Shown: positions 1 to 47,907, numbered from the stretch's first letter. The stretch is 64,000 nucleotides of DNA from an uncultured bacterium (GCA_965368975.1 CBDUPA010000010.1:128001-192000), one strand, 5' to 3'. The notes: generated by a model from the sequence alone, not told the origin. A program made the numbers and translations.

Positions 1-1280
1 ACCTGCTCGAAGGACAGGTGATCCTGGGTGGACCGGCGGAGGAGGAAGGTGAAAAACCACCGCCACCGCCCGACATTGATGGTCGGCTGGCGGCACGCGG
101 TCGCGACGTCTCGGCCGGCCTCGAAGTGCTGCCCGAGGCGGACTTCGTGATCCTCGACGACCTGATCGTCGATGGTTCGGCGTGCATCGGCTTCGACTGC
201 GTCAACGGCGAATCCTTCGGCTTCGACACCATCCGGCTGAAGGAGAACAACCTACGCATCAAGTTCGACGACACCTCGACCGCCGCTTCCTACCCACGCA
301 ATGACTGGCAGCTGACCGCCAACGACAGCGCCAACGGCGGCGCCAGCAAGTTCTCGATCGACGACATCAGCGGCGGCCGCACGCCGTTCACCGTCGAAGC
401 CAGTGCACCGAGCAACTCGCTGTACGTCGACGATTCCGGCCGCGTCGGCTTCGGAACTTCGACCCCGTACGTCGAGCTCCATACGGTCGATGGCGACACA
501 CCGACGGTGCGCCTGGAACAGACTGGAGCCTCGGGCTTCGCGCCCCAGAGCTGGGACGTCGCCGGCAACGAAACCAACTTCTTCGTCCGCGACGTCACCA
601 GCGGCTCGACCCTGCCGTTCCGCATCCGCCCGGGCGCTTCGAGCAGCTCGCTCTACATTGATTCCGACGACGACATCGGCATCGGCACGGCCAGCCCAAG
701 CGAAGACATCCACATCGTGCGCAACAGCGTACCAGTGGGCGTCAAGCTGGAAAACAGCGCTGACGGGCGCGACTGGTCGTTCAAGCTCAGCGGCAGCGGC
801 TTCGCCATCAACGAAGAGAGCGAAGCCTCGACCCTGCTGCTGCGCGACAGCGGTGAGATGCGCGTCGGCAACAACGGCACGGAGATGATGGTGCTGCAAA
901 CCGATGGCGACCTGATCATCGACGGTACCTTGACCGAGAACTCCAACGTCCATGCCAAGCAGGACTTCCAGCCGGTCGATCCGAACGCCGTACTGGAACG
1001 CCTGGCAGCGCTCGAGGTGACCACCTGGTCCTTCAAGCGCGACCCGACAGTGCGCCACATGGGGCCTACGGCCCAGGACTTCCGCGCCAGCTTCGGCCTC
1101 GGTGAGTTCGAAGACAAGCTCGCCCCGGTCGACGTGCGCGGTGTCACTCTGGCCGCCGTCCAGGCCCTCTACCAGCAGCTGCAGAACCAGGCCGAGCAAC
1201 TCGACGCTCTGCGCGCCGAGAACGCCACCCTGGTCGAACGCCTGACCGCCCTGGAGACGGCCGGCGTTGCGGCCCCGTAG
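1..1280 (+). CDS. S74 autochaperone-domain fibre protein, paralog 1 (5'-truncated by window edge)
   Basis: Frame is open from position 3 (LLEGQVILGG). Contains the DDLIVDGSACIGFDC..FGFDTIRLKENNLRI core, GxVGxGTxxP repeats, S74-type S-x4-K site (NSNVHAK), HMGPTAQDF motif and a C-terminal coiled coil. Confidence 0.85.
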   Translation, partial: LLEGQVILGGPAEEEGEKPPPPPDIDGRLAARGRDVSAGLEVLPEADFVILDDLIVDGSACIGFDCVNGESFGFDTIRLKENNLRIKFDDTSTAASYPRNDWQLTANDSANGGASKFSIDDISGGRTPFTVEASAPSNSLYVDDSGRVGFGTSTPYVELHTVDGDTPTVRLEQTGASGFAPQSWDVAGNETNFFVRDVTSGSTLPFRIRPGASSSSLYIDSDDDIGIGTASPSEDIHIVRNSVPVGVKLENSADGRDWSFKLSGSGFAINEESEASTLLLRDSGEMRVGNNGTEMMVLQTDGDLIIDGTLTENSNVHAKQDFQPVDPNAVLERLAALEVTTWSFKRDPTVRHMGPTAQDFRASFGLGEFEDKLAPVDVRGVTLAAVQALYQQLQNQAEQLDALRAENATLVERLTALETAGVAAP

Positions 1281-1380
1281 CTCCACCCGCCAACCCACAA
1301 CCCGCCCGCCACCTGCCTACCGGCGGCCGCCAAGGCCCAGCGCCAACCGCGGACCGCCGGTTCCTCGTTGGTAGGCATGC

Positions 1381-1449
1381 CGCCAGAAACAGCCCCTTTC
1401 CGTCAGAAAGAGCCCTTCCGTCAGAAAAGCCTCTCCCGTCAGAAAAAGC
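1381..1449 (+). repeat. Four imperfect direct repeats of CG(T/C)CAGAAA, period 20/18/18 bp
   Basis: Copies start at 1381, 1401, 1419 and 1437, about 80-150 bp upstream of the paralog 2 start. Confidence 0.75.
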
Positions 1450-1530
1450 GGATGCATTTCGAATGCACGAGTACCGGCTACTCAGCCGGCACTTCCATCA
1501 TCTATGACTTTCTACGGGAAGGAGACCACC

Positions 1531-3087
1531 GTGTATCGACGCCCTCTCATCCTCAGCCTGCTAGCCAGCCTGATCCTGGCTACAACTCTCTGCGCTGCAC
1601 CTCAGCCCGAACGGCAGAGCTATCCGGACGCGGCGAGCGGATCACTGGCCCAGCTCTATGCCACTGCTGGCGGCCTGCAAATCGTGCCGGAGACGTCGCG
1701 GCAGCGAGCGCGACTGGCCGTCTCGGGCCCGGACGGCTACCACCAGCAGGTCGAACTCGCTGACGGCAAGGCCTTCCACTGGTCCGCCTTCGACGCCGAC
1801 GGCCAACCGCGGCCGGATGGAGTCTATCGCTTCGAGCTGCACACCGGCACAGCCACCAGCCCCAGCGTCCAACGCGGGCACTTCCGGCTGCTCGCTGGTG
1901 ACGTGCAGCTACCGCTGAACCCGGACGCTCACCCCGAAACAACCCCCGACAAGGACCAGGTGTTCGCTGACGACGTCATTGCCGAGCGCGTGTGCGCCGG
2001 CACCAATTGTGCCAACGGAGAGACCTTCGGCTTCGAGGCCCTACGGCTGCACAGCTACAACAACCACATCGACTTCGTCGACAGCAGCGGCGCCAACTAC
2101 GCGACGCGCGACTGGCGACTGGAGGTCAACGACACCAGCTACCTCGGCAGCGATCGCTTCGCCGTGCGTGACGTCGACGCCGACACCCAGCCCTTCGGCC
2201 TGGCCGGTGGCGCGCCGGACTACAGCCTGTGGATCGACAGCAATGGCCGGCTCGGCCTGGGCACTTCGACTCCCGCCCAAGAGCTGCACATGCTGGGTAC
2301 CTCGCCGACCCTTCGCCTGGACCAGCCCGCGGGGGCTGGGATCACGGCACAGCGGTGGGATCTGGGCGTCAACACCGTCGGGCGCTTCCAGCTGCACGAC
2401 ATCAGCAACAGCTCGACGCCGATCAACCTCTATAGCGGCGCTCCCAGCTATAGCCTGTCGATCGATCCAGACGGCAATGTCGGCCTCGGTATCCAGGATC
2501 CCCTAACCGCCCTACACCTGGTTCGCGATGGCGCGCTGCAACTCAGAATGCAGAATACCAACATCAACAGCTACTGGGCCCTCGAAGTGAGCAACGGCGA
2601 CGTCTTCAGCATCGTGCGTCAGCAGCAGGGATCGTCGCTCCAGCTGCGCGCCGACGGCACCGTACGCCTGGGTCCCAACGGCACCGAGAAGTTCCTGCTG
2701 CAACCAGACGGTGACCTCGAGATCGCCGGAACCCTGACCCAGAACTCCGACGTCCACAGCAAGACCGGCTTCGCGGCAGTCGACCCGCAGAACATCCTCG
2801 AACAGGTCGCCGCCCTGCCGATCACCACCTGGACGTTCAAGAACGACGCCCAGCAGACCCGCCACATGGGACCGATGGCGCAGGACTTCCACGCCACCTT
2901 CGAACTCGGCGAACGGCCAGACCGGCTAGCTCCGGTCGATGTCGACGGCGTCACGCTGGCGGCGATCCAGGCGCTGTACCAGCAGTTGCAGGAGCAGCGT
3001 GCCGAACTCGACGCCCTGAGCGCCGAGAATGCCCTCCTGCGCACGCGCCTGGACCAGCTGGAGAGGAGCGAACCCCAGCACCCCTGA
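1531..3087 (+). CDS. Secreted S74 autochaperone-domain fibre protein, paralog 2 (most divergent)
   Basis: GTG start after AAGGAG RBS; signal peptide ..ILATTLCA; N-domain VSGPDG..PDGVYRFEL; CAGTNC; SDVHSK; HMGPMAQDF; coiled-coil tail. Confidence 0.85.
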   Translation: MYRRPLILSLLASLILATTLCAAPQPERQSYPDAASGSLAQLYATAGGLQIVPETSRQRARLAVSGPDGYHQQVELADGKAFHWSAFDADGQPRPDGVYRFELHTGTATSPSVQRGHFRLLAGDVQLPLNPDAHPETTPDKDQVFADDVIAERVCAGTNCANGETFGFEALRLHSYNNHIDFVDSSGANYATRDWRLEVNDTSYLGSDRFAVRDVDADTQPFGLAGGAPDYSLWIDSNGRLGLGTSTPAQELHMLGTSPTLRLDQPAGAGITAQRWDLGVNTVGRFQLHDISNSSTPINLYSGAPSYSLSIDPDGNVGLGIQDPLTALHLVRDGALQLRMQNTNINSYWALEVSNGDVFSIVRQQQGSSLQLRADGTVRLGPNGTEKFLLQPDGDLEIAGTLTQNSDVHSKTGFAAVDPQNILEQVAALPITTWTFKNDAQQTRHMGPMAQDFHATFELGERPDRLAPVDVDGVTLAAIQALYQQLQEQRAELDALSAENALLRTRLDQLERSEPQHP

Positions 3088-3257
3088 AGCCGTGGCGCCG
3101 GAGACGCGCGGGAGATTTTTTCTCGCCCGCTCTTGTCAGATCCTGGTCACGACCTGCGAAACCCAAAGCGAGAGTCGAGGAAAGACCCCGCGACTCTCAC
3201 AGGAACAGTAAGTCCCGCGGTGCCCCCCGACCCCGAGGTCGAACCGCGGTCACCACC

Positions 3258-3285
3258 GGGGCCGGGCGTGCCGGCCCCCTTTTTT
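3258..3285 (+). terminator. Rho-independent terminator after paralog 2
   Basis: GGGGCCGG-gcgtg-CCGGCCCC stem followed by CTTTTTT. Confidence 0.7.
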
Positions 3286-3460: not shown

Positions 3461-5068
3461 ATGCAGCAACTCCGAACCACGCTCTCTTTCCTACTCGTTC
3501 TCGCGTTGGTCGTAGCCACCCCCTCGTGGGCCAACCACTCGATCCAACCGCAGCTCGGGCCAGACTCCCTCGGCTTCGAAGTCTCCCTGCCCTATGGCGG
3601 CGCCAGCCTGGTGCTCCAGGGACCACAGGGGATACGTGTGGAACAGCACTTCGAGACCGGCGACACGCTTCGCCTGCAGTTGAGCCAGCACGCTCTGCCC
3701 GATGGGCTCTATACCTACGAACTGAGACTCGAACCTGCGAGCGGACCACGGACTCGCGGCCCACACACACTCTCGCAGGTAGCGCCGAGCCCGATGCCGA
3801 CAACCTCCGGCTACCTGCGTCTCGAAGGCGGACTCGTAGTCACGACATCCAGTACCGAGGTAGGAAGCAAGGACGTACGTGAACAGCGACCAACCAGCGG
3901 TCCAGAGATCGAGACAGAAGCGGATCAGATCATCCTCGACGACCTGATCGTCGATGGATCGCTGTGCGTCGGCACCAGCTGCGTCAACGGCGAGAGCTTC
4001 GGCACCGACACCATCCGCCTCAAGGAAGCCAATCTGCGCATCCATTTCCAGGACACATCGGTCTCCCCGTATCCGACCAACGATTGGCGCCTGATCGCCA
4101 ACGACAACACCAGCGGCGGCGCCGGCTATTTCTCGCTCGAAGACACGGACAACAGCTTCCGCCCGTTCACCATCGAAGCCGGGTCACGAGCCAATGCCCT
4201 GTACGTCGACAACAACGACAACGTGGGCCTGGGAACCGCAACACCGGCCAAACTACTGCACCTGCAAGACGGCGACACGCCGACGCTGCGCCTACAGCAG
4301 GACGGTTCCTCGTCGTTTTCGCCCCAGACCTGGGATCTCGGCGGCAACGAAGTCAACTTCTTCATCCGCGACACCGATACCGGAAACTACACCCTACGTG
4401 TAGACTCTGATGCCCCGAACCATGCGCTAGTGGTGTCCGACGGCGGCGAGATCGGCATCGGTACAGCTTCCCCGACCGGCGACTTGCACATGATCCGCTC
4501 CGGCGTGCCCGTGGACATCATCATGGCCGACAGCACGACCGGCCGCAACTGGAGCCTGCGCCTGAGCGGCAGTGGTTTCGCGGTCAGCAAGGCCAGTGAC
4601 GCCGCGGCCTTCCTGATCTTCGACGACGGCCGCGTGCGCATGGGCCCGAACGGCACCCAGAACTTCCTGCTCGCCACCAACGGCAACCTGACCATCGCCG
4701 GCAACCTCACCGAATTGTCCGACGTCAACGCCAAGCACCACTTCGAAGACATCGATACTGCCACGATCCTGGAGAGGCTTCAGCAGCTCCCCTTGAGCAC
4801 CTGGTCCTACCGAGACGACCCCGATTCCGTGCGCCATCTGGGGCCCACCGCACAGGAATTCCAAGAAGCTTTCGGCCTCGGAAACGGTGATCCGACCCAC
4901 ATCTCCGGCATGGATGTTCGTGGTGTCGCACTTGCCGCGATTCAGGAGCTCACTCAGAGATCTGATGCAAAAGAGCATGAAATCAAGGACTTGCGCCGCT
5001 CTCTCAGCGATCTACAGGCGCTCAACGAAGCTCTGCTTCGACGTGTTGAAGCCCTCGAAGCCCCCTGA
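3461..5068 (+). CDS. Secreted S74 autochaperone-domain fibre protein, paralog 3
   Basis: ATG at 3461 after GGAGG; signal peptide ..VATPSWA; PDGLYTYEL; DDLIVDGSLCVGTSC; SDVNAK; HLGPTAQEF. Confidence 0.88.
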   Translation: MQQLRTTLSFLLVLALVVATPSWANHSIQPQLGPDSLGFEVSLPYGGASLVLQGPQGIRVEQHFETGDTLRLQLSQHALPDGLYTYELRLEPASGPRTRGPHTLSQVAPSPMPTTSGYLRLEGGLVVTTSSTEVGSKDVREQRPTSGPEIETEADQIILDDLIVDGSLCVGTSCVNGESFGTDTIRLKEANLRIHFQDTSVSPYPTNDWRLIANDNTSGGAGYFSLEDTDNSFRPFTIEAGSRANALYVDNNDNVGLGTATPAKLLHLQDGDTPTLRLQQDGSSSFSPQTWDLGGNEVNFFIRDTDTGNYTLRVDSDAPNHALVVSDGGEIGIGTASPTGDLHMIRSGVPVDIIMADSTTGRNWSLRLSGSGFAVSKASDAAAFLIFDDGRVRMGPNGTQNFLLATNGNLTIAGNLTELSDVNAKHHFEDIDTATILERLQQLPLSTWSYRDDPDSVRHLGPTAQEFQEAFGLGNGDPTHISGMDVRGVALAAIQELTQRSDAKEHEIKDLRRSLSDLQALNEALLRRVEALEAP

Positions 5069-5498: not shown

Positions 5499-7109
5499 AT
5501 GCGTAACACGTTTGTGTTCCTGTCCGTACTGTGTCTCGTGGCAGCGCTGTGCGCTGCTCCCGCTATGGCCGAAAACGCCGCTACCGTCCAGATGGGCTCG
5601 CACGCGCTCAACGTGCAAGCCAACGTCGCCGCCAACGGCGCTACCGTTCGCATCTCGGGCCCGGGCGACTTCTACCTGCAGCGCGACATGAGCGAGAGCA
5701 GCTTCTCGATCGACACCGCCGGCATGACCGACGGCGTCTACACCTACGAGGTCACCCTGCATCCGCAGGCCCAGCGCACCAGCCGTGATGCGCAGGATCG
5801 CGCTCGTCAGAGCAACAACGCCGATATGACTGTCTCCGGCTACTTCCGCGTTTCCGGTGGCGGCATCGTCAACCCGGACGCGGCCGAAGAGAGCGCCGAC
5901 AAGGCTCAGACCTTCACCACCGACCTGATCGTCCAGGGTTCCGCCTGCGTCGGCATCGACTGCACCAGCAGCGAGAGCTTCGGCTCTGACACGATCCGCA
6001 TGAAGGAAAACAACCTGCGCATCCACTTCGACGACACTTCGTCGTCCGCCAGCTTCCCGAAGAACGACTGGCGCATCGTCGCCAACGACAGCAGCAACGG
6101 CGGTGCCGAGTACCTGCGTGTCGAGGACGCGACCAACAGCAAGCAGCCCTTCACCATCGAGGCCGGCGCGCAGAACCACACCCTGTACGTCGAGTCCGAC
6201 GGTGACGTCGGCATCAAGACCGCCAACCCGGTCGTCGACCTGCACATCGTCGAGGGCAACACCCCGACCCTGCGTCTCGAGCAGGACGGCTCGGACGGCT
6301 TCACCGCGCAGACCTGGGACCTGGCGGGTAACGAAACCAACTTCTTCCTGCGCGACGTCACCAACAGCTCGAAGCTGAGCTTCCGCGTCAAGCCGGGTGC
6401 GCCCGAGAACTCGATCTTCGTCGCCGCCAGCGGCTTCATTGGCATGGGTACCGCGAGCCCTGGGTCTGAGCTGCACATCAAGGCCTCTGCGACCCCGGAA
6501 CTGCGCTTCGAGGATGCGACCCGCACCTGGGCCCAGCGCATGAGCGGCAGCGGCTTGGCCTTCACCGCCCCGGGCGACACCGACGCCAGTTTCCTGATCC
6601 GTGACGACGGCGAAGTTCGCGTTGGCTCCAACGGCGCCGATGTGTTCGAAATCGAGGTCAATGGTGATCTGAAGTCCCGCGCCAACGGCGATGCCACCAC
6701 CACCAACCGCCTGTTCTTCGACGCCAGTGCTGGTGACCTGACCATCTTGGGTGACCTCAGCGCCGCCAACTTCTCCGGCTCGTCCGACCGCAACCTCAAG
6801 CACAACATCGAGCCGGTCGACACTGCCGAGGTCCTGGCCGCGGTCTCCCAGATGCCGATCAGCACCTGGTCCTACAAGACCGACGCCCCGAACATCCGCC
6901 ACATCGGCCCGATGGCTCAGGACTTCAAGGCCGCCTTCGACCTCGGCCAGCCCGAGACCCGCATCGGCGTCATGGATCTGAGCAGCGTGTCGCTGGCCGC
7001 GATCCAGGAGCTCAACAACCAGCTGCAAGAGAAGACCAACGAGGTCGAGGATCTCAAGCAGCGCATGGAGCAGCTGGAAACCGCTCTGCTCGCTCTGCAA
7101 CAGCAGTAA
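5499..7109 (+). CDS. Secreted S74 autochaperone-domain fibre protein, paralog 4
   Basis: AAGGAG RBS; signal peptide ..AAPAMA; DGVYTYEV; DLIVQGSACVGIDC; SDRNLK; HIGPMAQDF; strongly biased codon usage. Confidence 0.9.
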   Translation: MRNTFVFLSVLCLVAALCAAPAMAENAATVQMGSHALNVQANVAANGATVRISGPGDFYLQRDMSESSFSIDTAGMTDGVYTYEVTLHPQAQRTSRDAQDRARQSNNADMTVSGYFRVSGGGIVNPDAAEESADKAQTFTTDLIVQGSACVGIDCTSSESFGSDTIRMKENNLRIHFDDTSSSASFPKNDWRIVANDSSNGGAEYLRVEDATNSKQPFTIEAGAQNHTLYVESDGDVGIKTANPVVDLHIVEGNTPTLRLEQDGSDGFTAQTWDLAGNETNFFLRDVTNSSKLSFRVKPGAPENSIFVAASGFIGMGTASPGSELHIKASATPELRFEDATRTWAQRMSGSGLAFTAPGDTDASFLIRDDGEVRVGSNGADVFEIEVNGDLKSRANGDATTTNRLFFDASAGDLTILGDLSAANFSGSSDRNLKHNIEPVDTAEVLAAVSQMPISTWSYKTDAPNIRHIGPMAQDFKAAFDLGQPETRIGVMDLSSVSLAAIQELNNQLQEKTNEVEDLKQRMEQLETALLALQQQ

Positions 7110-11284: not shown

Positions 11285-11433
11285 TCTCGGAGCTCGAGAT
11301 GGGCCACACAAGGCCCGAAGATAGAAAGTCGATCACGAGATCGCAGTACAGGTCGCTCGAGGGACCGTAGGATCGTTCGACCAAGGATCGCAAGAGATGT
11401 TGTCAATTCAGCATATCACGAAGACAATTCGAG

Positions 11434-15752: not shown

Positions 15753-15775
15753 GACGACTTGCTACGGTTCGAGGC

Positions 15776-17821: not shown

Positions 17822-17836
17822 ATCGCTTCGTCGAGG

Positions 17837-19204: not shown

Positions 19205-19382
19205 GCTGGGCGGGGATTTCCAAGAATTGACGACTCTTGAATGACTCCAAGCAATGCTGTATGCTCTCTCCTCATTAGAGACTCTGGCGAATTACACGGG
19301 CTACGTCGAGTCATCGAAGCTCTGCAGATCGGCCCCCTCCCGAGCTGCCCACTGAGATTTAAGGACTTTGGGAGATTTCTCC

Positions 19383-20015: not shown

Positions 20016-20148
20016 AGTGGGCTGGGGACTGCTCGTAGCGCAGAGCTGCGAGCGAAGCTCCACACGTCTGCCTCACAAGCGGAGCTGAGGAAACAGCCGA
20101 GTCGCCTAGCACGGCGCTTGGCTGTTTTCATTTGTACCGAGATCCACG

Positions 20149-28256: not shown

Positions 28257-28283
28257 GGTCGCATACTCCTCAGGTTTCCAGCT

Positions 28284-30014: not shown

Positions 30015-30250
30015 GTCGACTCCTTCCTGACTATCTTGTACAGCCGACTCAGTGCTTGATCGTTACAGCTCTCGCGGACAGCGCACTGCCGCACGGGGCG
30101 CGATCGATATGGGGCCCTGGCCACTGGGCCGTGACCCCACGGTGAGCTCAGCCAAGTATGAAGCGTAAATGGGTAGTGAGAATTCGATCCGAGAGAATCG
30201 TGGTGTTGAAACGGGTTTCGAGAGTGAGTTCGCGGTCGGGCCAGCGGGGA

Positions 30251-31813: not shown

Positions 31814-31995
31814 GATGGAGGTCGTTGGAACAAGGGCCGGCCAATCTCGTTCGAGCACAGCGCCGTTCGTTTCAATCCGGGAAGCTATCATACAGCCGCC
31901 CCCTTTGACCTCCGACCGGCAGCCACAGTCGCTATGGTACCTTCACCGTTTCCGGGCGCATGCCGTGTCCCGGGTGTCGATGGAAGGATTGCACG

Positions 31996-40119: not shown

Positions 40120-41955
40120 ATGTTCGACCGAACAACCCGGACCTTCGCGGGCCTGATCGCCGCACTCGTGGTGGTTCCGTACGCCACCCTCAGCCTCGAC
40201 TTGCAGACTGGCATGGTGGTGCAGGCAATCTTGCTGCTGACGTTGACCTCGAGCCTGCTCGCCTGGGGCCTGGTCTGCCGACGCCCCGAGCAAGCCCGCC
40301 CCCGAGCATGGAGTGGCCTGAGGTCTATCGTTTGGCAACGCCTGGCCCCGCGTGACCTAGCCAATTCCGGGCTCTGGCTGTACAGCGGAGCGATCGCCTG
40401 GGGAGCTAGCGTCGCCCTGCTGCTTGGCAACGACATCATCCTGCTCAGTGGTCAGGTCGTCGCCATGGGACTCTTACCCCTCGGTTTCGTTGCCGGCCGT
40501 CTACACCCGCGCGGCACCCTGGCCCGCGGCCTGATCCTGGGAACTGGCGTAGCGGTCTCCGCCGCGGTGGTGTTGCACTTGGTGGCATGGTTGGCTGCCG
40601 CCGCTGCCGGCCGGCCGGTGGTGCGCCTGTTCCTGGCCAAGTCCGTGGGCGTGGTGGGCTTGATCCCAATGGTGTTCCTGCTGCTGCTCAGCGTCCGCAA
40701 CGCGCGCTCCGTGGCGCCGAAACTACGGTGGCTGTGCGACACGGCACTCATCCTGTCAGCGATCTACCTCCTGGGTTCCGGAGTGCGTGGAGCTTGGTTG
40801 AGCCTCGGGTTCGCCACCCTGCTGTGGAGCGGGCTTTTCCTCCTCCGGGCTGCGGCACAACAGCGCCTGCGCCTGTTACGCCGTGCGGGCTTGTGTGTGC
40901 TGGCGGCAACGCTGCTCGGCGCCCTTGTGCTCGGCCTGCCCGCTTGGTGGTTGCAGCAGCCGCACGACAATCTGCTCCCCCAAGGCGAGCACCCAGCGAC
41001 CTGGCTGCTGGCTTCCGAGGTCGGCTTCCACGCGACCTCGCCCCATGTCGAGCCCCCATCGCGCATCGACTGGGACGAATCGATCCACGACCAAGAGGTA
41101 CCGCTTGCCTTGGATCTGGACCTCGACCGTACTTACCGCCTGCGCGCCTGGGTGCACGGCCATCCTTCCAGCCTCGCCTACGTTGCGCTGCGCTGGCGGG
41201 ACAGCGAAGGGCACCTACTGCACCACCCGCTGGACGCGCGCGCGCAGCCGTGGCCCCAGCTACAAGTCGTAACCGCGATTGACCGCCCACCCACGCAAAG
41301 CCGAAGCGCCTCGCTGCATTTTGGAGTTCCGAAGTACCGCTCGGATCATCGTGACCCACCCAAGGGGGTATGGATGCTGGAGCGAGTCGAGCTGCACGAC
41401 CTCGGCCCTGCCTGGGCAGCCCCTTTCTGGCGTCAAGTCGACTACACGCTCGCACGCTTGAAGACCCTGCTCCCAGGTGCACAGCCAAGCGCGAGACCCT
41501 CGATCGACTATCGCTGGCTGGAAACGCGCACCCTGCTGCACCGCTTCACTGCCGCCTCCTGGCCACTGCAGCTCGCCGGCCATGGCCTCGGTGCCACCTA
41601 CGAATTGAAGAGCGATCCAGATTCCGAGTTGCCGGTCGAACATCTCACCGGACGTCTCGATGCTGCGCAGCTGAACTACATCCACAACTTTTACGCCTTC
41701 TTGCTCTACAAGCTCGGCGCCGTCGGCACGCTGCTGGTCATCGCCGCGCTGACCTTGTGGATCGGCCGTGCGATCTGGCCGTTCCGGCGTCGGCAGACCA
41801 AGGACGACCTGCTTGAACACCTACCGGCGGCAGTACTTTCGATTCTCGTGGCCTACCTCGTATGGGCCGTGAGTTCGCCAGAACTGATCAACTTCCGGAT
41901 TGCGCCACTGCTCGGCCTCCTCCTCGCATCGACGCTATCCCTGCGCAACGGGTGA
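40120..41955 (+). CDS. O-antigen ligase / O-oligosaccharyltransferase-like membrane protein with inserted periplasmic beta-domain
   Basis: Multi-TM; GSGVRGAW; SIDYRWLE; AGHGLG; YIHNFYAFLLYKLG; ~150 aa soluble insert. Confidence 0.7.
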   Translation: MFDRTTRTFAGLIAALVVVPYATLSLDLQTGMVVQAILLLTLTSSLLAWGLVCRRPEQARPRAWSGLRSIVWQRLAPRDLANSGLWLYSGAIAWGASVALLLGNDIILLSGQVVAMGLLPLGFVAGRLHPRGTLARGLILGTGVAVSAAVVLHLVAWLAAAAAGRPVVRLFLAKSVGVVGLIPMVFLLLLSVRNARSVAPKLRWLCDTALILSAIYLLGSGVRGAWLSLGFATLLWSGLFLLRAAAQQRLRLLRRAGLCVLAATLLGALVLGLPAWWLQQPHDNLLPQGEHPATWLLASEVGFHATSPHVEPPSRIDWDESIHDQEVPLALDLDLDRTYRLRAWVHGHPSSLAYVALRWRDSEGHLLHHPLDARAQPWPQLQVVTAIDRPPTQSRSASLHFGVPKYRSDHRDPPKGVWMLERVELHDLGPAWAAPFWRQVDYTLARLKTLLPGAQPSARPSIDYRWLETRTLLHRFTAASWPLQLAGHGLGATYELKSDPDSELPVEHLTGRLDAAQLNYIHNFYAFLLYKLGAVGTLLVIAALTLWIGRAIWPFRRRQTKDDLLEHLPAAVLSILVAYLVWAVSSPELINFRIAPLLGLLLASTLSLRNG

Positions 41956-42288: not shown

Positions 42289-44007
42289 ATGAAGATGACA
42301 TCTCGCTGTACTTCTACGCTCTTGATGCTGGCCGCGCTGGCCATGCTCACCCTCCCCGCCATCGCCAACGACCAAGTCATGGACGTCAAGGCCGAGGGTT
42401 CGATGCTGATCTTCACTCCGCTGATGGAGTACGAGAGCATCGAGCTGGTGGTCACCGGCCCCAAGCGCACCTTGACCCGCAACATCTACGCCAACGGCAA
42501 GCAATTCGCCTGGGACGTATTCGACCAGAGCGGCAAGGCACGCCCGGACGGTCCCTACACCTTCCAGCTGCGCGTCACCCCGATCATCGATGCCGAAGCC
42601 AAGGAGATGCTGCAGGCTGCCCGCTTCAAGGGCAACGAAGACGAGACCTTCGTCCAGCTGTGCGAGGAAGGCCGCATCCCAGATGGCCCGATCACCCAGA
42701 ACGGCTACTTCCTGATCATCAAGTCCGAGCTGGTCATGGGTGGGGAAACCGAGAAGACCGCCGCCGAGCAGCGCCAGGCGCGCAGTGAAGATGCCGACAA
42801 GGGCCTCGAGGTTTCTCCCGAAGCCGACTTCGTGATCAACGACGACCTGATCGTCGATGGCTCGGCTTGCATCGGTTTCGACTGCGTCAACGGTGAGAGC
42901 TTCGGCTTCGACACCATCCGACTCAAGGAAAACAACCTGCGCATCAAGTTCGAAGACACCTCCGTCGCCGCTTCCTTCCCGACCACCGACTGGCAGCTGA
43001 CCGCCAACGCCAGCGCCAACGGCGGCGCCAGCAAGTTCTCGATCGACGACATCAGCGGTGGTCGCACGCCGTTTACCGTCGAGGCCAACGCGCCCAGCCA
43101 CTCGCTGTACGTTGACGATGGCGGCCGCATCGGCAACGGCACCTCGACTCCGTCGGTGGAGATCCACACCGTCGACGGCGACACCCCGACCCTGCGTTTG
43201 CAGCAGGACGGGTCCTCCGGCTTCGCGCCCCAGACCTGGGACGTGGCCGGTAACGAGACCAACTTCTTCATCCGCGACGTGACCAACGGCTCGACGCTCC
43301 CCTTCCGTATCCGTCCGGGCGCGTCGACGAGTGCCATCTTCATCGACGTCGACAGCGACATCGGCTTCGGCACCGCCTCGCCGGACGAAGACCTCCACAT
43401 CGTGCGCAGCGCGGTGCCGATCGGTGTCAAGCTAGAGAACAGCGCCGATAACCGCAACTGGACCTTCAAGATGAGCGGCAGCGGTTTCGCCGTCAACGAA
43501 GATGCCGAAGCCTCGACCTTGCTGCTGCGCGACAGCGGCGAGATGCGCGTCGGTAACGATGGCGCCGAGGAATTCGTCGTGCGCTCGAACGGTGACACCG
43601 AGATCGACGGCAACCTCGATGTCGATGGCGACATCACCGCCACCGGCACGATCTCCGACCGTGACCGCAAGCAGCAGATCGTCAACGTTGACGGCGCCGA
43701 CGTGCTGTCCAAGGTGCTGGCCCTGCCGGTCTCCACGTGGGTCTACAACCACCAGACCGAGGTTCGCCACATCGGCCCGATGGCGCAGGACTTCCACGCC
43801 GCCTTCGGTCTCGGTACCGAGCGTTCGATCGGCCTGACCGACCTCGGCGGCCTGTCGCTGGCTGCGATCCAGGAACTGCACCAGCAGTTCGAGTCGCAGC
43901 TCGAGAACAAGGACGCTGAGCTCGAGCAACTTCGTACCGAGAGCGCCGAGATGCAGCAGCGCCTGGAGGCCCTCGAGGCCGCCCTGCTGGCCCTACAGCA
44001 GAACTGA
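42289..44007 (+). CDS. Secreted S74 autochaperone-domain fibre protein, paralog 6
   Basis: AAGGAG RBS; signal peptide ..LPAIA; PDGPYTFQL; core near-identical to paralog 1; SDRDRK; HIGPMAQDF. Confidence 0.9.
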   Translation: MKMTSRCTSTLLMLAALAMLTLPAIANDQVMDVKAEGSMLIFTPLMEYESIELVVTGPKRTLTRNIYANGKQFAWDVFDQSGKARPDGPYTFQLRVTPIIDAEAKEMLQAARFKGNEDETFVQLCEEGRIPDGPITQNGYFLIIKSELVMGGETEKTAAEQRQARSEDADKGLEVSPEADFVINDDLIVDGSACIGFDCVNGESFGFDTIRLKENNLRIKFEDTSVAASFPTTDWQLTANASANGGASKFSIDDISGGRTPFTVEANAPSHSLYVDDGGRIGNGTSTPSVEIHTVDGDTPTLRLQQDGSSGFAPQTWDVAGNETNFFIRDVTNGSTLPFRIRPGASTSAIFIDVDSDIGFGTASPDEDLHIVRSAVPIGVKLENSADNRNWTFKMSGSGFAVNEDAEASTLLLRDSGEMRVGNDGAEEFVVRSNGDTEIDGNLDVDGDITATGTISDRDRKQQIVNVDGADVLSKVLALPVSTWVYNHQTEVRHIGPMAQDFHAAFGLGTERSIGLTDLGGLSLAAIQELHQQFESQLENKDAELEQLRTESAEMQQRLEALEAALLALQQN

Positions 44008-44055: not shown

Positions 44056-44094
44056 AAGGCCGGCCAGATCGTTGGATCTGCCGGCCTTCTCTTT
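44056..44094 (+). terminator. Rho-independent terminator after paralog 6
   Basis: AAGGCCGGC-CAGATC..GATCT-GCCGGCCTT followed by CTCTTT. Confidence 0.65.
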
Positions 44095-44245: not shown

Positions 44246-45967
44246 ATGCAGCTACAACCCGTCCCCTCATCGCGCCAAAGCGTCTTACCCCTGACTCTCT
44301 GCGCTCTTCTCGCGCTGGCGATCTTCGCCACCCCAGTCTCCGCGGCTGAAACGATCGCTGAATTCAACGCCGAGGGCTCCATGCTGATCTTCGAGCCGGC
44401 AATGGAGTACGAAAGCGTCACGCTCAGCGTACGCGGCCCCAAGCTCACATTCACCGAAGACGCCTACGCCAGCGGTAAGAGCTTCGCCTGGGATGCCTTC
44501 GATGCCGAAGGTCGTGCACGGCCTGACGGCGCCTATACCTTCGAACTCCGCGTCACCCCGATCATCGACCCCGAAGCCAAGGACATGCTCGCTGACGCCC
44601 GAGCCAAGGGAAACGAAGCGGAGGTCTTCGTGGCCCTGTGCGAGGAAGGCCGCGTGCCGGAAGGCCCCATCACCCAGAACGGGTACTTCCAGCTCAGCCG
44701 CGGCAACGTGATTCTCAGCTTCGATACCGAGAAGAACAGTGACCTGGACGATCCCCAAAGCCGCGTCGATCGCGAGGCCCGGCAAGGTATCACGGACTCA
44801 CCCGACAAGCAGTTGATCACTGGCGACCTGACGGTGCGCAACAGCCTGTGCATCGGCTTCGACTGCCTACACCCCGAGAGCTTCAGTTTCGACACCGTAC
44901 GCCTGAAGGAGAACAACCTGCGTATCCACTTCGACGATACGTCCACCGTAGGCTCCTTCCCCAGGACTGACTGGCGCATCCAGATCAACGACAGCGCCAA
45001 TGGCGGCGGCTCTTACTTCGGAGTCGTCGACGCCTCGGCAAACCGGCGCTCGTTCTCCATCGAGGCCAACGCTCCGTCCCACTCGCTGTACGTCGACGAC
45101 GGCGGCCGCCTCGGTCTTGGCACCTCGACACCAGTGGTCGACATCCACGCCGTGTCCGGCAATACGCCAACCTTGCGCCTGGAGCAGAACGGTTCGTCCG
45201 GGTTCGCACCGCAAACCTGGGACGTGGCGGGTAACGAAACCAGTTTCTTCATTCGCGACGCCACCAACGGCTCAACGCTGCCTTTCCGCATCCGCCCAGG
45301 CGCTGGTAGCCAGTCCCTGGTCATCGACCAGGATGGAGACATCGGCGTCGGCACTCTGTCGCCCAGCGAGGACATCCACGTCCGGCGTAGCGGCGTACCG
45401 ATCGGCGTCAAGCTAGAGAACAGCGCCGATGGACGAGACTGGTCATTCAAACTCAGCGGCAGCGGCTTTGCCATCAACGAGGAGGCCGAAGCCTCGACGC
45501 TGCTGCTGCGCGACAGTGGCGAGATGCGGGTTGGCAACAACGGCGCCGAAGAATTCGTGGTGCGTGCCAACGGCGACACGGAGATCGACGGCAACCTGGA
45601 TGTCGATGGTGACATCACCGCCACCGGTACCATCTCCGACCGCAACCGCAAGCAGCAGATCGTCGAGGTCGATGGTGCCGACGTACTGGCCAAGGTGCTG
45701 GCCCTGCCCGTATCCACCTGGGTCTACAACCACCAAACCGAAGTCCGCCACATCGGCCCGATGGCCCAGGACTTCCACGCCGCCTTCGGACTCGGCACCG
45801 AGCGCTCGATCGGCCTGACCGATCTCGGTGGCCTGTCCCTGGCCGCGATCCAGGAGCTGAACGAGCAGTTCGAGCAGAGGCTCGAAGCCAAGGACGCACA
45901 GATCGACGAGATGCAGCAGCGCCTCGAAGTGCTGGAAGCGGCCTTGCTGCAACTACAACAACAGTAA
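44246..45967 (+). CDS. Secreted S74 autochaperone-domain fibre protein, paralog 7
   Basis: AAGGAG RBS; signal peptide ..TPVSA; PDGAYTFEL; SLCIGFDC; SDRNRK; HIGPMAQDF. Confidence 0.9.
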   Translation: MQLQPVPSSRQSVLPLTLCALLALAIFATPVSAAETIAEFNAEGSMLIFEPAMEYESVTLSVRGPKLTFTEDAYASGKSFAWDAFDAEGRARPDGAYTFELRVTPIIDPEAKDMLADARAKGNEAEVFVALCEEGRVPEGPITQNGYFQLSRGNVILSFDTEKNSDLDDPQSRVDREARQGITDSPDKQLITGDLTVRNSLCIGFDCLHPESFSFDTVRLKENNLRIHFDDTSTVGSFPRTDWRIQINDSANGGGSYFGVVDASANRRSFSIEANAPSHSLYVDDGGRLGLGTSTPVVDIHAVSGNTPTLRLEQNGSSGFAPQTWDVAGNETSFFIRDATNGSTLPFRIRPGAGSQSLVIDQDGDIGVGTLSPSEDIHVRRSGVPIGVKLENSADGRDWSFKLSGSGFAINEEAEASTLLLRDSGEMRVGNNGAEEFVVRANGDTEIDGNLDVDGDITATGTISDRNRKQQIVEVDGADVLAKVLALPVSTWVYNHQTEVRHIGPMAQDFHAAFGLGTERSIGLTDLGGLSLAAIQELNEQFEQRLEAKDAQIDEMQQRLEVLEAALLQLQQQ

Positions 45968-46011
45968 GGAAACTCATCCTTCCACACGGCGGCGAAAGCC
46001 GTACGAGCAAG

Positions 46012-46045
46012 GCCGGCTCGATCTTCGGATCCAGCCGGCTTTTTC
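46012..46045 (+). terminator. Rho-independent terminator after paralog 7
   Basis: GCCGGCT-CGATC-ttcg-GATC-CAGCCGGC (UUCG loop) followed by TTTTT. Confidence 0.7.
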
Positions 46046-46137
46046 TTGGCTCGTCGGCTGTCAGAGCTGTGACCTCAGGAGCGAACTCCAAGCGTCTGTA
46101 CATCTCTCTACACCTCACCTCAATGGAGGATCTTCCT

Positions 46138-47907
46138 ATGCAGCCGACTTGTTTCCGTACCTGGCAGCGCACCTGCACGCCCCTGCTGGCGCTCGCCCTC
46201 GCCGTACTCCCCTGGGCCACGTCTCCTGCCCTCGCCGACGACGATGTGGCCCGCGTCACCGCCGAGAGTTCCGTACTGGTCTTCGAGCCAAGCATGAGCT
46301 ACGACAGCGTCGTGCTCAGCGTCAGTGGCCCCAAACTCACCCGCACCGAGACTATGGTCGCCGGCGGCAAGGGCTTCATCTGGGACGTCTTCGACACCCA
46401 GGGCCAGCCCCGCCCCGATGGCATCTACACCTATGAACTCCGCGTCAATCCCGTGATCGACGCGGAAGCACGCAACATGCTCGCCGACGCCCGCGTCAAG
46501 GGCAACGAGGAAGAGGTCTTCCTGGCTCTCTGTGCTGAAGGACGCGTGCCCGACGGTGCCATCTCGCAGAGCGGCTATTTCCTGGTCTCCAAGAGCGCAA
46601 TCGTGCTCGACGCCGAGAGCGAGGAAAAGAGCGCCGATGCCGACAGCAACGACGAACGAATCGCTCGCGGTGATGCCGGCTTCGAGACCTCACCCGCGAA
46701 CCCAGACAAGCAGCTGATCACGGGTGATTTGACTGTGCGCCACAGCCTGTGCGTGGGCACTGACTGCCTGCATCCCGAGGCCTTCGGTTTCGACACCGTG
46801 CGCCTCAAAGAGAACAATCTGCGTATCCACTTCGACGATACGTCCGCCAACAACTTCCCGAGCAACGACTGGCGTGTTCAGATCAATGATAGTGCCAACG
46901 GTGGCGGCTCCTACTACTCGGTGGTCGACGCCACCGCCGGTCGTCGCAACTTCACCATCGAGGCCGGCGCTCCCAGCCACGCCCTCTACGTAGACAGCAG
47001 CGGCGACGCGGGCTTCGGCACCTCGACACCGGTCGTGGATCTCCACGTCGTCGACGGCGATTCGCCGACGCTGCGCTTGGAGCAGAACGCCTCGTCCGGC
47101 TTCCAGCCGCAAACCTGGGACCTGGCCGGGAACGAGACCAGCTTCTTCATTCGCGACGCCACCAACGGCTCGACCCTGCCCTTCCGGATTCGGCCGGGCG
47201 CGGCCAGCCAGGCCTTGGTCATCGATACCGACAGCGACATCGGCCTCGGAACCCTGTCTCCCAGCGAAGACCTCCACATCGTGCGCAGCGCGGTGCCAAT
47301 CGGCGTCAAGCTGGAAAACAGTGCCGATGGCCGAGACTGGTCTTTCAAGCTCAGCGGCAGCGGCTTCGCGATCAACGAAGAGGCTGAAGCTTCCACCCTG
47401 CTTCTGCGGGATAGTGGTGAGATGCGCGTCGGCAACAACGGCGCCGAGGAGTTCGTGGTGCGCGCCAATGGCGACACCGAAATCGATGGCGACCTCGATG
47501 TCGACGGCAACATCTCGGCCACCGGCATGATCTCCGACCGCCACCGCAAGGCCGAGTTCGCCGAAGTCGACGGCAGCGAAGTCCTGGAGCAGGTGCTGGC
47601 TCTGCCGGTCACCACCTGGATCTACAAGGATCGCGAGGGTGTACGCCACATCGGCCCGATGGCGCAGGATCTCCACGCTACTTTCGGACTGGGCACTGAG
47701 GAATCGATCGGCCTGGGCGACTTGGGCGGCCTGTCGCTAGCGGCGATCCAGCAGCTCCATCGCGACTTCGAGCGCCAGCTCGAGAACAAGGACCAAGAAC
47801 TCCAGCAGCTGCGCGCCGAGAGCGACCAGCTGCGGGCCGAGAGCACCGCCATGCAGACGCGTCTGGCAGCGCTCGAGGCAGCTCTGCTGTCTCTGCAGCA
47901 GAACTGA
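46138..47907 (+). CDS. Secreted S74 autochaperone-domain fibre protein, paralog 8
   Basis: GGAGG RBS and ATG at 46138; signal peptide ..SPALA; PDGIYTYEL; SLCVGTDC; SDRHRK; HIGPMAQDL. Confidence 0.9.
   Translation: MQPTCFRTWQRTCTPLLALALAVLPWATSPALADDDVARVTAESSVLVFEPSMSYDSVVLSVSGPKLTRTETMVAGGKGFIWDVFDTQGQPRPDGIYTYELRVNPVIDAEARNMLADARVKGNEEEVFLALCAEGRVPDGAISQSGYFLVSKSAIVLDAESEEKSADADSNDERIARGDAGFETSPANPDKQLITGDLTVRHSLCVGTDCLHPEAFGFDTVRLKENNLRIHFDDTSANNFPSNDWRVQINDSANGGGSYYSVVDATAGRRNFTIEAGAPSHALYVDSSGDAGFGTSTPVVDLHVVDGDSPTLRLEQNASSGFQPQTWDLAGNETSFFIRDATNGSTLPFRIRPGAASQALVIDTDSDIGLGTLSPSEDLHIVRSAVPIGVKLENSADGRDWSFKLSGSGFAINEEAEASTLLLRDSGEMRVGNNGAEEFVVRANGDTEIDGDLDVDGNISATGMISDRHRKAEFAEVDGSEVLEQVLALPVTTWIYKDREGVRHIGPMAQDLHATFGLGTEESIGLGDLGGLSLAAIQQLHRDFERQLENKDQELQQLRAESDQLRAESTAMQTRLAALEAALLSLQQN

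Follow-up and report, generated by a model that had tools for sequence, protein, structure and literature searches.

A candidate host family of exported, self-cleaving trimeric fibres encoded in two gene arrays of an uncultured bacterium

The window, as we call the whole 64,000-nucleotide stretch of DNA analysed here (GCA_965368975.1 CBDUPA010000010.1:128001-192000), carries eight paralogous fibre ORFs, F1 to F8, all on the plus strand and arranged in two arrays, five genes at 1-9174 and three at 42289-47907. Reading ribosome sites together with signal peptides shifted several starts inward (1531 or 1504, 3461, 42289 and 46138). The features of the locus are as follows, bit scores being those against the Pfam model PF13884 (Peptidase_S74).

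1..1280, plus strand (window ORF 3-1280): F1; PF13884 35.2 bits, Ser codon 942-944, Lys codon 957-959, C-x4-C 183-200
1531..3087, plus strand (alternative start 1504): F2; PF13884 36.5 bits, Ser codon 2746-2748, C-x4-C 1993-2010
3258..3278, plus strand: terminator-like GC hairpin with T-run after F2, listed by the hairpin scan
3461..5068, plus strand (ORF from 3284): F3; PF13884 40.4 bits, Ser codon 4718-4720, C-x4-C 3965-3982
5499..7109, plus strand: F4, 536 aa, the paralog used for modelling; PF13884 53.4 bits; signal peptide at about residues 1-24, Ig-like N-domain at about 25-125, linker, core 134-256 (C150/C155), capping loops at 237 and 314, Ser429/Lys434, S74 plus helix 429-536
7183-7210: terminator-like hairpin after F4, listed by the hairpin scan
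7489..9174, plus strand: F5; PF13884 38.6 bits, Ser codon 8845-8847, C-x4-C 8011-8028
9338..31891: polysaccharide gene cluster between the arrays, assigned with Pfam and NCBIfam
40120..41955, plus strand: ORF of 611 aa immediately upstream of array 2, weakly matching Wzy_C (O-antigen-ligase-like)
42289..44007, plus strand (ORF from 42238): F6, opening array 2; PF13884 37.8 bits, Ser codon 43654-43656, C-x4-C 42868-42885
44058-44086: terminator-like hairpin after F6, within which the scan listed just a 5-pair stem at 44071-44085
44246..45967, plus strand: F7; PF13884 39.8 bits, Ser codon 45635-45637, C-x4-C 44849-44866
46011-46039: terminator-like hairpin after F7, read from a sequence alignment and absent from the scan listings
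46138..47907, plus strand (ORF from 46069): F8; PF13884 36.2 bits, Ser codon 47533-47535, C-x4-C 46750-46767

F1 has its 5' end outside the window, 417 nt to the left; the extended frame is complete, includes a signal peptide and measures 565 aa from its refined start. With refined starts the paralogs are 518-589 aa long, and all eight starts sit 5-10 nt past an (A/G)GGAG-type ribosome site, which in F2 precedes the GTG at 1531. Of the eight paralogs F2 diverges most, with the longest branch of the tree. The hairpins suggest that several of the fibre genes may be separate transcription units.

We found one common architecture in the eight proteins. At every N-terminus, K/R residues are followed by a hydrophobic core of 12 residues (mean Kyte-Doolittle 2.4-3.2) and by an AxA-type site, features on which our own heuristic, not SignalP, calls Sec-type signal peptides. 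A previous reading of this DNA, made from the sequence only, had assigned such peptides to the seven complete copies; the heuristic agrees, and adds the first copy once this is extended leftward. At the other end, all eight paralogs match PF13884 with 35.2-53.4 bits, where the cut-off is 22, and the match begins at the Ser; this bears out the proposal of eight similarly built paralogs in two arrays. The S-x4-K strings quoted in support of it were exact (SNVHAK, SDVHSK, SDVNAK, SDRNLK, SDVNSK, SDRDRK, SDRNRK and SDRHRK); Ser and Lys of this motif are invariant in an alignment of 77 family sequences, and in a profile of the eight the Lys aligns with that of the MyRF chain 7DC3. Per paralog there is an Ig-like N-domain, one C-x4-C, one HxGPxAQxF/L motif, a C-terminal helix and two capping-loop motifs ([VILA]GxG/K[TI]xxPxxx(x)[LI]H) 76-77 residues apart, so that the beta repeats first described as two or three are present, but number two per protein. 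Chance likeness is excluded, since over their whole length the others share 45-66% identity with the first paralog. A genome-wide count had also been suggested, and a scan of the source genome (7,125,974 bases, 99.3% complete) returned exactly 8 PF13884 matches, all of them these fibre genes within the window arrays.

Identity between paralogs varies along the chain: N-domains share 17-57%, tips 26-91% and cores 36-89%; F5 is 53% identical to F4. From core to tip the DNA of F1 is 80-91% identical to that of F6, and its S74 part is closer to F2. Judged by these comparisons, F1 is a recombinant mosaic of F6-like and F2-like parts. In the tree the fibre paralogs group by genome, and we infer that the arrays arose separately in different genomes.

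The AF2 model of the F4 monomer was moderate (mean pLDDT 74.7, pTM 0.37) and weak over residues 130-430. Its N-domain is an Ig/FN3-like sandwich with look-alikes in the PDB (Z 10.3 to 3SD2). The modelled C-terminus (residues 411-525) superposes on the MyRF ICA domain 7DC3_B with rmsd 2.2 A over 115 aligned residues and Z 8.1, which is near the level where chance arrangements begin, and the assignment of the S74 fold therefore leans on the sequence match too. Foldseek searches with the same model found Bd2133 (8OND_B, probability 0.99), the T5 L-shaped fibre with its chaperone (4UW8_A, probability 0.87) and 7DC3_C (TM 0.57). Modelled as a trimer, residues 204-536 of F4 gave ipSAE values of 0.89, 0.88 and 0.89 in three runs, a score that may be partly owed to likeness with solved S74 trimers, while the best of 3 controls gave 0.00; of proteins solved as pairs of one chain, 20 of 30 attained the ipSAE mark, and of those solved as single chains 1 of 23 did. 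The trimer runs had at least 97% contact agreement and partner pLDDT of at least 91, and more than 1,000 contacts spanned residue 215 to 534, the pattern expected of an intertwined fibre. In this sense the trimeric fibre, which had been set beforehand as a check, is predicted in silico (ipSAE 0.89 versus 0.00).

The surroundings of the arrays are not those of a phage. Pfam revealed no phage genes among the 36 other long ORFs of the window, none of the 14 ORFs of the 20 kb left flank was a phage gene, and seven unannotated window ORFs had 0 PHROG matches; the absence of phage context noted earlier thus extends leftward, and phage genes just left of the window, named beforehand as the contrary finding, were not seen. 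Because the S74 proteins carry Sec-type signal peptides and lie outside a phage context, we take the fibre genes to be host genes rather than prophage cargo. The cluster at 9338..31891 encodes Polysacc_synt_2, a WecA-like GT4 enzyme, epimerases, three GT1 enzymes, two sulfotransferase domains (one fused to a Wzx-like flippase), an AsnB-type amidotransferase, a Wzy_C protein, a UDP-sugar dehydrogenase and PAPS synthase. We regard it as context, any functional link to the fibres being putative. The Wzy_C match of the ORF at 40120..41955 (E 3e-4, 21 bits) is below the cut-off of 31.7; this ORF had no NCBIfam or PHROG match and grouped with nothing from 75 related loci, in a clustering that joined window ORFs only to gene groups of other kinds. 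Elsewhere, on contig C3 (the fibres being on C10), the source genome has an eCIS-like locus with a sheath, a gp19-like tube, an AAA ATPase and an eCIS_core protein. For type II secretion, the source genome gave no GspG (PF08334) match and no GspD match reaching the cut-off, so that the fibres may stay periplasmic or use some other outer-membrane route.

The family, which on sequence evidence is defined by the conserved C-x4-C core domain, comprises at least 2,093 clusters at 50% identity. Within the order 33 of 41 genomes have it, as do 25 of 301 sampled genomes of the phylum, and it also occurs in Pseudomonadota, Verrucomicrobiota, Bacteroidota and others; it is not peculiar to this lineage. 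Of the sequence-only reading, the S74 domain, signal peptides, non-phage setting, likeness to Bdellovibrio fibres and predicted trimer stand, while domestication and a surface-adhesin role, which it also put forward, are putative. NCBI names the members 'tail fiber domain-containing protein', and arrays reach 9-10 genes. In related Proteobacteria the N-domain and core are separate ORFs, with signal-peptide-like N-termini on both in all 10 pairs listed, and in such split forms the conserved core directly follows the signal peptide. Next to the arrays, five Rhodobacteraceae loci carry type II secretion genes (gspG to gspL) together with a prepilin peptidase.

Taken together, these observations make it fairly likely that the eight genes are one host family of exported, self-cleaving trimeric beta-helix fibres that bind outside the cytoplasm. 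Each protein would leave the cytoplasm by its Sec signal peptide, and outside it three chains would join via the C-terminal S74 intramolecular-chaperone domain and a helix of about 45 residues. The chaperone would template an intertwined triple beta-helix, its repeats of about 76 residues each closed by a capping loop (VGxGTxxPxxxLH). The Ser-x4-Lys dyad would then cut the chain at Ser and free a chaperone piece of 108-124 residues; cleavage at Ser with chaperone release is established for phage endosialidase and Bdellovibrio Bd3182. The product would be a short mature trimer with three variable Ig-like domains on acidic linkers at its N-terminal end, followed by the conserved core, whose Cys-x4-Cys loop likely forms a disulfide in the exported protein, and with a variable tip exposed by cleavage. 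Such a fibre may serve in surface adhesion, or it may cross-link extracellular matrix or polysaccharide, and the diversity of N-domain and tip, reshuffled by recombination, may provide a repertoire of specificities. No anchor (lipobox, PEP-CTERM or similar) was seen in the fibre proteins.

Rather than adhering to foreign surfaces, the fibres might be directed at the polysaccharide of the cell itself, here probably sulfated, and bind, organise or trim it, for instance as a capsule or exopolysaccharide tether or as a depolymerase; we hold this to be rather unlikely. It is a special case of the exported-fibre explanation more than a strict alternative to it. The arrays bracket a polysaccharide cluster with PAPS synthase and two sulfotransferase domains, and in one relative (G003) fibre genes likewise flank a glycan cluster (GT enzymes, CMP-sugar synthase, ABC-2 exporter and methyltransferases), whereas in two others (G002 and G005) the neighbours of the arrays are FG-GAP/ASPIC and TPR genes. 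Of 75 related loci, 24 have one or more GT, NDP-sugar epimerase or DegT-type genes within 10 kb, although these genes are common and the figure may be due to chance. Solved S74 fibres have glycan-binding clefts, and so does Bd3182 as discussed in passages of the paper on Bdellovibrio fibres (PMC10769870). The glycan-directed reading is opposed by the domain searches, which detected no glycosidase or lyase family in the fibre proteins, and by the mature part, predicted to be short (about 380-440 residues) and without a recognisable catalytic domain.

Recognition of prey, as in Bdellovibrio, for predation or antagonism on other bacteria seems improbable to us. The closest solved and characterised relatives are indeed Bdellovibrio fibres, an expanded, mosaic repertoire would suit many targets, and several carrier groups, among them Lysobacter, Wenzhouxiangella and Saprospiraceae, include predatory or lytic members. 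However, there is no sign of predation for the source lineage, ordinary heterotrophs (Ruegeria, Shewanella and Pseudoalteromonas) are carriers as well, and the proteins are about half the length given for the Bdellovibrio fibres.

We consider it very improbable that the fibres are supplied in trans to an eCIS or tailocin encoded elsewhere in the genome. The eCIS-like locus described above would allow it, and some eCIS tail fibres end in S74 and have short 'mini-fibre' formats, according to passages of PMC12923769. Among 41 relatives, whose kinship makes them non-independent (one genus accounts for 5 of the 8 fibre-less genomes), all 18 that bear a sheath gene have fibres and none of the 8 without fibres has a sheath, so a link to injection systems is possible; against this, a sheath match was absent from 15 of the 33 fibre-bearing relatives, some of them assembled in 1-5 contigs. 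Contractile injection particles assemble in the cytoplasm, and the Sec-type signal peptides on all eight fibres argue against such a partnership, as do the different contigs of the two loci and arrays of up to 9-10 genes, which far exceed one particle's need. Remnants or cargo of a decayed prophage have next to no probability, for although the C-terminal ~60% of the fibres weakly resembles phage tail-fibre PHROGs (best E 6.5e-14) and 31 of 50,697 phage records, none of these records covers at least 80% of F4, and this origin is contradicted by the lack of phage genes in the 64 kb window and the 20 kb to its left, by eight intact frames that all have signal peptides, by the even G+C of the window (0.61-0.69) and by conservation across the order (33/41).

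Returning to exported host fibres as the preferred explanation, a bolder extension of it can be put forward, which we ourselves think doubtful. The fibres could be the first noticed members of a very large phage-independent class of exported, self-cleaving 'mini-fibres' with a separable Ig-like module and a Cys-loop core, exported by type II secretion at least in Rhodobacteraceae and acting as matrix cross-linkers or lectins together with FG-GAP/ASPIC (CRTAC1-like) proteins and the polysaccharide of the cell itself (sulfated in this case), their recombining tandem arrays forming a strain-specific repertoire. If so, the S74 fibre would count as a matrix or adhesion device of bacteria in general, not as a speciality of phages or predators. 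The family is in any case very large and unstudied in bacteria, its sole characterised relatives being Bdellovibrio's prey-binding fibres.

Among known systems, the eCIS fibres are alike in their bacterial genomes, S74 terminus and short format, but, in the passages of PMC12923769, they belong to eCIS operons and have baseplate-attachment domains, while the proteins described here have signal peptides and are encoded apart from the eCIS. No baseplate-attachment domain (eBAP1-5) was among the Pfam matches of the paralogs. The animal MyRF ICA shares an S74-type self-cleaving trimerisation domain outside phages (cleavage being predicted in our case); MyRF is, however, a eukaryotic membrane-bound transcription factor, and the architecture outside the S74 region is not shared. 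With the endosialidase of phage K1F and the T5 L-shaped fibre pb1 (PF13884), the fibres have in common the S74 domain with its Ser-Lys dyad, an intertwined beta-helix upstream of it and, as predicted here, chaperone-driven trimerisation and self-release. They differ in having a signal peptide instead of a virion-attachment domain, and no phage neighbours; the best phage match, Synechococcus phage S-B28 gp08, has 72% cover and 25% identity.

The mosaic adhesive trimers (MATs) of Bdellovibrio bacteriovorus, with an S74 subgroup that includes Bd3182 (Caulton et al. 2024, PMC10769870), are the nearest comparison. Passages of that paper describe proteins of about 1,000 aa whose N-domain is invariant, cell-proximal and without PDB homologues, a domain of about 130 aa that is beta-rich and conserved, homologous among MATs, right after the signal peptide, and a capping loop of the form V-G-G/N-pi-x-x-P-x-x-x-L (PMC10769870). 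The fibres of the window are about half as long (518-589 aa), and when the family core was sought in proteins of 939-2,680 aa, 1 protein was found to have it. In our fibres the first domain is a variable Ig-like one, followed by the conserved 122-residue core with C-x4-C, and the variable Ig/FN3-like N-module is a separate gene in other phyla, in contrast to the invariant N-domain of the MATs as those passages put it; orientation and anchoring may therefore differ. Also, carriers of the family are mostly not known predators. On the other side, both families, so far as those passages describe the MATs, are chromosomal, multi-copy and mosaic, with a signal peptide (here by heuristic), a beta-helical trimer (predicted in our case) that has capping loops of one kind and a C-terminal S74 domain with SDxxxK. 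The earlier comparison with MAT fibres was apt, since the best solved match to the profile of the eight is Bd2133 (8OND, E 4.8e-9), through the capping-loop repeats, followed by MyRF (7DC3, E 0.0046) and Bd3182 (8OJN, E 0.0049). By profile and fold matches the MAT fibres Bd2133 and Bd3182, together with MyRF, are the closest solved relatives, and our best reading of the eight proteins is that of a compact MAT-like variant.

We found that the eight genes are best explained as encoding host-encoded, Sec-exported, self-cleaving homotrimeric beta-helix fibres, which would form an eight-member recombining repertoire and be compact relatives of the mosaic adhesive trimer (MAT) fibres of Bdellovibrio. 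The observation made by the sequence-only reading, of eight S74 fibre paralogs in two arrays and devoid of phage context, was confirmed. All eight ORFs belong to two tandem arrays:

1-9174, + strand: first array, five fibre genes (F1-F5)
1-1280, + strand: F1, interrupted by the window edge
1531-3087, + strand: F2
5499-7109, + strand: F4, 536 aa, the modelled copy
42289-47907, + strand: second array, three fibre genes (F6-F8)
42289-44007, + strand: F6

Each of them matches Pfam Peptidase_S74 (35.2-53.4 bits, curated cut-off 22), in agreement with the family assignment proposed for the eight, and a scan of the whole assembly (7.13 Mb, 59 contigs, 99.3% complete) gave exactly eight S74 matches, all of them F1-F8, which sets the genome-wide number of paralogs at eight. 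An alignment and a motif script showed one C-x4-C, one S-x4-K and one HxGPxAQxF/L motif per protein, and the F4 model has a long C-terminal helix (residues 491-535); the motifs listed previously, with the exact S-x4-K strings, are thus borne out. Capping-loop motifs of the VGxGTxxPxxxLH type were also present in all the proteins as announced, but their number is two per protein, 76-77 residues apart, and not two to three. Cleavage would occur at the Ser of the S-x4-K motif, and the two cysteines (C150 and C155 in F4) may form a disulfide. None of the NCBIfam models fits the fibres, giving sub-threshold noise only.

Several of the longest ORFs begin upstream of the likely true start. Each of the eight genes has an internal ATG/GTG 5-10 nt downstream of an (A/G)GGAG-type ribosome site, the sole element conserved among the eight upstream regions, where no shared promoter motif was found and sigma-70-like sites were not above shuffled controls. 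From the refined starts, all the proteins open with K/R residues, after which come a hydrophobic run of 12 residues (mean Kyte-Doolittle 2.4-3.2) and an AxA-type site (for example ASA/AD, AMA/E or ALA/D). These three features constitute our own heuristic for signal peptides, used instead of SignalP, and they uphold the signal peptides claimed earlier for the seven complete copies and predict one for F1 too, which is whole in the genome and begins 417 nt further left. GC-rich hairpins and T-runs were found downstream of F2, F4, F6 and F7, suggesting that several fibre genes are separately transcribed; the hairpin scans list those of F2 and F4 in full and that of F6 as an inner 5-pair stem only, and the F7 hairpin was read off the alignment and positioned by script. 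Among sequencing runs, one DNA run matched with a 0.07 share of words and no RNA run was listed as a match.

By Pfam, the 36 other long ORFs of the window are ordinary chromosomal genes, among them a penicillin amidase, glycogen and glucose genes and a Ser/Thr kinase, and signalling proteins occur in the 20 kb on its left side, along with a TonB receptor, an M23 peptidase and a debranching enzyme. No phage gene was found among these 36 ORFs or in those 20 kb, so that the absence of phage context holds in the window and immediately left of it. In the same line, a PHROG search of the seven unannotated window ORFs returned no match, and G+C is even over the window (0.61-0.69). A polysaccharide cluster separates the two arrays:

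9338-31891: polysaccharide cluster (Pfam), between the two arrays
14799-15752: sulfotransferase, within the polysaccharide cluster
15776-17821: AsnB-type amidotransferase, nearest to the XrtA/PEP-CTERM type and below its cut-off
21227-22672: Wzy_C protein
23679-25922: fusion of a Wzx-like flippase and a sulfotransferase domain, 747 aa
28284-30014: bifunctional ATP sulfurylase/APS kinase (NF004040, 934 bits)

This sulfation toolkit suggests that the cluster may produce a sulfated exopolysaccharide or O-antigen. Further along the window, the stretch 34253-35284 resembles a REP-associated tyrosine transposase weakly and below the cut-off (37 bits against 80), and an AAA_21 ATPase with a DUF4276 protein at 51284-53028 matches HEC-01A (465 bits) and HEC-01B (239 bits), a candidate defence pair of PADLOC. 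The 831-aa Ser/Thr kinase at 53496-55991 carries a C-terminal DUF7527, and its kinase domain scores 273 bits with the PADLOC PD-T4-6 models, a match that may be due to the kinase fold alone. A respiratory-type cluster at 56126-63696 encodes a Rieske protein, cytochrome b, a multihaem cytochrome, a molybdopterin oxidoreductase, a NapB-like cytochrome and an Alginate_exp-like outer-membrane protein.

Self-cleaving S74 fibres are textbook phage parts. When F4 was compared with 50,697 phage records, 31 matched at E 1e-3 or better and none covered 80% or more of the protein. The widest match was gp08 of Synechococcus phage S-B28 (72% cover, 25% identity), whose alignment follows a series of beta-helix repeats and pairs the C-x4-C segment of F4 with a capping-loop segment of gp08. 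The conserved 122-residue core accordingly appears to be a first helix repeat that has diverged. The PHROG matches of the eight paralogs are weak (best E 6.5e-14 to ~1e-6) and fall mostly on the C-terminal 60%.

An AlphaFold2 monomer model of F4, built on an alignment of 77 sequences, reached a mean pLDDT of 74.7 and a pTM of 0.37. Confidence was high at the N-terminal beta-sandwich (~30-125) and the C-terminal S74 part (~430-536) and low between them, as would be expected if the middle folds solely as an intertwined trimer. The structural relatives of the model are the following:

N-domain: DUF3244 protein 3SD2, Z 10.3, rmsd 2.4 A over 82 residues, Ig-like sandwich
N-domain: T9SS substrate C-terminal domains, 8GL6_D, Z 9.3
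N-domain: FN3 domains, Z ~8
Middle: Bdellovibrio Bd2133 fibre, 8OND_B, probability 0.99
C-terminus: MyRF ICA domain 7DC3_B, Z 8.1, rmsd 2.2 A over 115 residues
C-terminus: T5 L-shaped fibre with chaperone, 4UW8, by Foldseek

The Ig-like fold of the N-domain is common and uninformative on function. The sequence-only reading had expected a trimeric model and, in agreement, three copies of F4 residues 204-536 were predicted to associate with ipSAE values of 0.89, 0.88 and 0.89 (0.00 in the best of three controls), a mark attained among proteins of solved structure by 20 of 30 one-chain pairs and by one of 23 single chains. Between trimer runs at least 97% of the contacts agree, the partner pLDDT is at least 91, and contacts span the whole modelled stretch (residues 215-534). 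These predictions support that F4 would form a homotrimer, and the score may be partly owed to likeness to solved S74 trimers.

Homologues were found in 33 of the 41 genomes of the same order (24 of 28 genera), often in arrays. Of 301 genomes sampled evenly over the phylum, 25 carry the core domain with an E value no higher than 1e-15; most of these have 1-3 copies, and the genome described here is the highest of the sample with 8, up to 14 candidates having been scored per genome. The collection of named species gave at least 568 relatives among 620 candidate stretches. The 75 loci retained bear titles of Acidobacteriota (including Thermoanaerobaculia, Holophagales, Vicinamibacterales and Aminicenantes) as well as of Gamma- and Alphaproteobacteria, Verrucomicrobiota, Bacteroidota and Desulfatiglandales. 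A word-based search with 8,000 candidates scored gave at least 2,834 clusters of proteins with an E value of 1e-10 or lower, the named ones being titled "tail fiber domain-containing protein". All S74 clusters from the ESM Atlas were unnamed and mainly of Acidobacteriota; together with the nearest named relatives, they indicate Acidobacteriota as the phylum to which the window belongs. Against 1.84 billion representatives, the core profile found 51,349 matches at E 1e-3, 12,348 at 1e-10 and 2,093 at 1e-30, the weaker ones including long proteins that match the capping-loop repeat alone; the family thus comprises at least 2,093 clusters at 50% identity. In the literature collection searched, no paper on the family outside Bdellovibrio and no functional study was found; the supplement of Caulton et al., 2024 (PMC10769870) may already name relatives, its supplementary tables 3 and 4 being said to list fibres from other bacteria.

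Strong core matches fall into two architectures. In the core-only one, the core sits at residue ~20-35 of a protein of ~400 aa; in the fused one it sits at ~130-220 of a protein of ~510-650 aa with the N-domain attached. At many proteobacterial loci the N-domain is an ORF of its own (~140-170 aa) that directly precedes a core-only gene, for example at L054:2161-3854, L065:9971-11692 and L026:9433-11182. Both ORFs open with signal-peptide-like sequences in all 10 split pairs printed, which makes the Ig-like module a separable part, probably with export of its own. The core was also sought in long proteins (939-2,680 aa), and the single match is weak evidence either way. The matches among the representatives also include giant proteins of 1,701-4,928 aa that string together S74, matrixin, dockerin, Calx-beta and FG-GAP domains; these resemble several genes run together and were not used as architectures.

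Among the eight paralogs the core is the most alike segment (36-89% identity), and the N-domain (17-57%) and the tip before the cleavage Ser (26-91%) are the least alike. F1 is a mosaic, recombinant gene. Its DNA is 80-91% identical to that of F6, 40 kb apart, from core to tip, and past the tip identity is 47-60% at the start of the S74 part and 52-71% further on; against the adjacent F2 the pattern is reversed, with 51-63% from core to tip and then 64-76% in the S74 part. A quick maximum-likelihood tree was computed for 54 full-length family members, taking ORFs of at least 330 aa that span more than 300 profile positions and leaving out the window-cut copy of F1. All eight window paralogs and two proteins of a related genome (G005) form one supported group (SH-aLRT 96). 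Paralogs of other genomes are mostly grouped by genome, indicating that the arrays were expanded or homogenised separately in each lineage. The eight fibres may serve as a repertoire with an extracellular binding role.

Recurrent neighbours were obtained by clustering the ORFs of the 75 loci. A CRTAC1-like protein with FG-GAP and UnbV_ASPIC domains lies within 10 kb in 31 of them, in several phyla, mostly on the same strand and at 3 kb or less, and it often has TPR repeats or adjoins a TPR protein (large FG-GAP/ASPIC examples are L066:11736-14873 and L020:234-3797). The genome described here has 18 ASPIC matches, 17 of them above cut-off and none on the window contig. At least one glycosyltransferase, NDP-sugar epimerase or DegT-type gene is present in 24 of the 75 loci, a count without control that may be due to chance. 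Among relatives in the window's own family, G003 resembles the present genome, its fibre genes flanking a glycan cluster on both sides, and G002 and G005 have ASPIC and TPR neighbours rather than such a cluster.

In five Rhodobacteraceae loci the arrays directly follow type II secretion genes, the upstream 10 kb holding gspG, J, K and L, minor pseudopilins, a prepilin peptidase and two Sel1-repeat proteins; two loci (L028, L047) were annotated by Pfam and three (L062, L073, L075) by BLAST cluster membership only, and all five are kin and count as about one observation. Type II secretion is a possible export route for these fibres. In our genome GspG (PF08334) has no match and GspD (TIGR02517) five partial matches, none at cut-off, so a periplasmic location of its fibres is possible. 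T2SSK (PF03934) was discarded as a marker, being uninformative with matches in 10 of 14 control genomes.

Another contig of this genome, C3, carries at ~36.7-47.7 kb (L100:8750-19724) a locus resembling an extracellular contractile injection system (eCIS), with a sheath, a gp19-like tube, an AAA ATPase and an eCIS_core protein, and the fibres could be regarded as parts of such a system. A sheath match occurs in 18 of the 41 relatives, all 18 of them with fibres, and in none of the eight fibre-less genomes, five of which are of one genus. However, 15 of the 33 fibre-bearing genomes have no sheath match, assemblies of 1-5 contigs included; this, together with the signal peptides of the fibres and the location of their genes apart from the eCIS-like locus, argues against the fibres being components of such a system, although the co-occurrence may point to a link.

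To our knowledge, S74 fibres on a bacterium's own surface were demonstrated only in 2024, in one predator. The window presents this principle in a compact version and in a lineage without sign of predation; the version is common, being found in several phyla and frequently in arrays. If they are exported adhesins or matrix components, these fibres would be overlooked, abundant surface devices of sediment and marine bacteria. This would be easily testable because Ser cleavage can be followed by simple biochemistry and there are several cultured carriers, among them Ruegeria aquimaris, Marinicella litoralis, Shewanella maritima and Lewinella cohaerens. Annotators should not take an S74 "tail fibre" bearing a signal peptide as a sign of a prophage.

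The nearest characterised relatives were reached with a profile of the eight paralogs against all PDB sequences, which gave Bd2133 (8OND) as the best match (E 4.8e-9), followed by MyRF (E 0.0046) and Bd3182 (8OJN, E 0.0049), with alignments on the capping-loop repeats and the S-x4-K region. A profile was needed since a single-sequence PDB search with the S74 part of F4 returned only a coiled coil (E 0.54). In Caulton et al., 2024 (PMC10769870), the MAT family is marked by a signal peptide and a conserved beta-rich N-domain of ~130 aa, the body is a trimeric beta-helix that meanders and has capping loops of the form V-G-G/N-pi-x-x-P-x-x-x-L, and 13 of 21 members have an S74 domain with SDxxxK, cleaving at Ser. 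Whereas the MAT N-domain is described there as invariant and without PDB homologues, the first domain of the window fibres is a variable Ig-like module, and these fibres, at about half the MAT length, share with those of Bdellovibrio the signal peptide, the capping loops and the S74 end.
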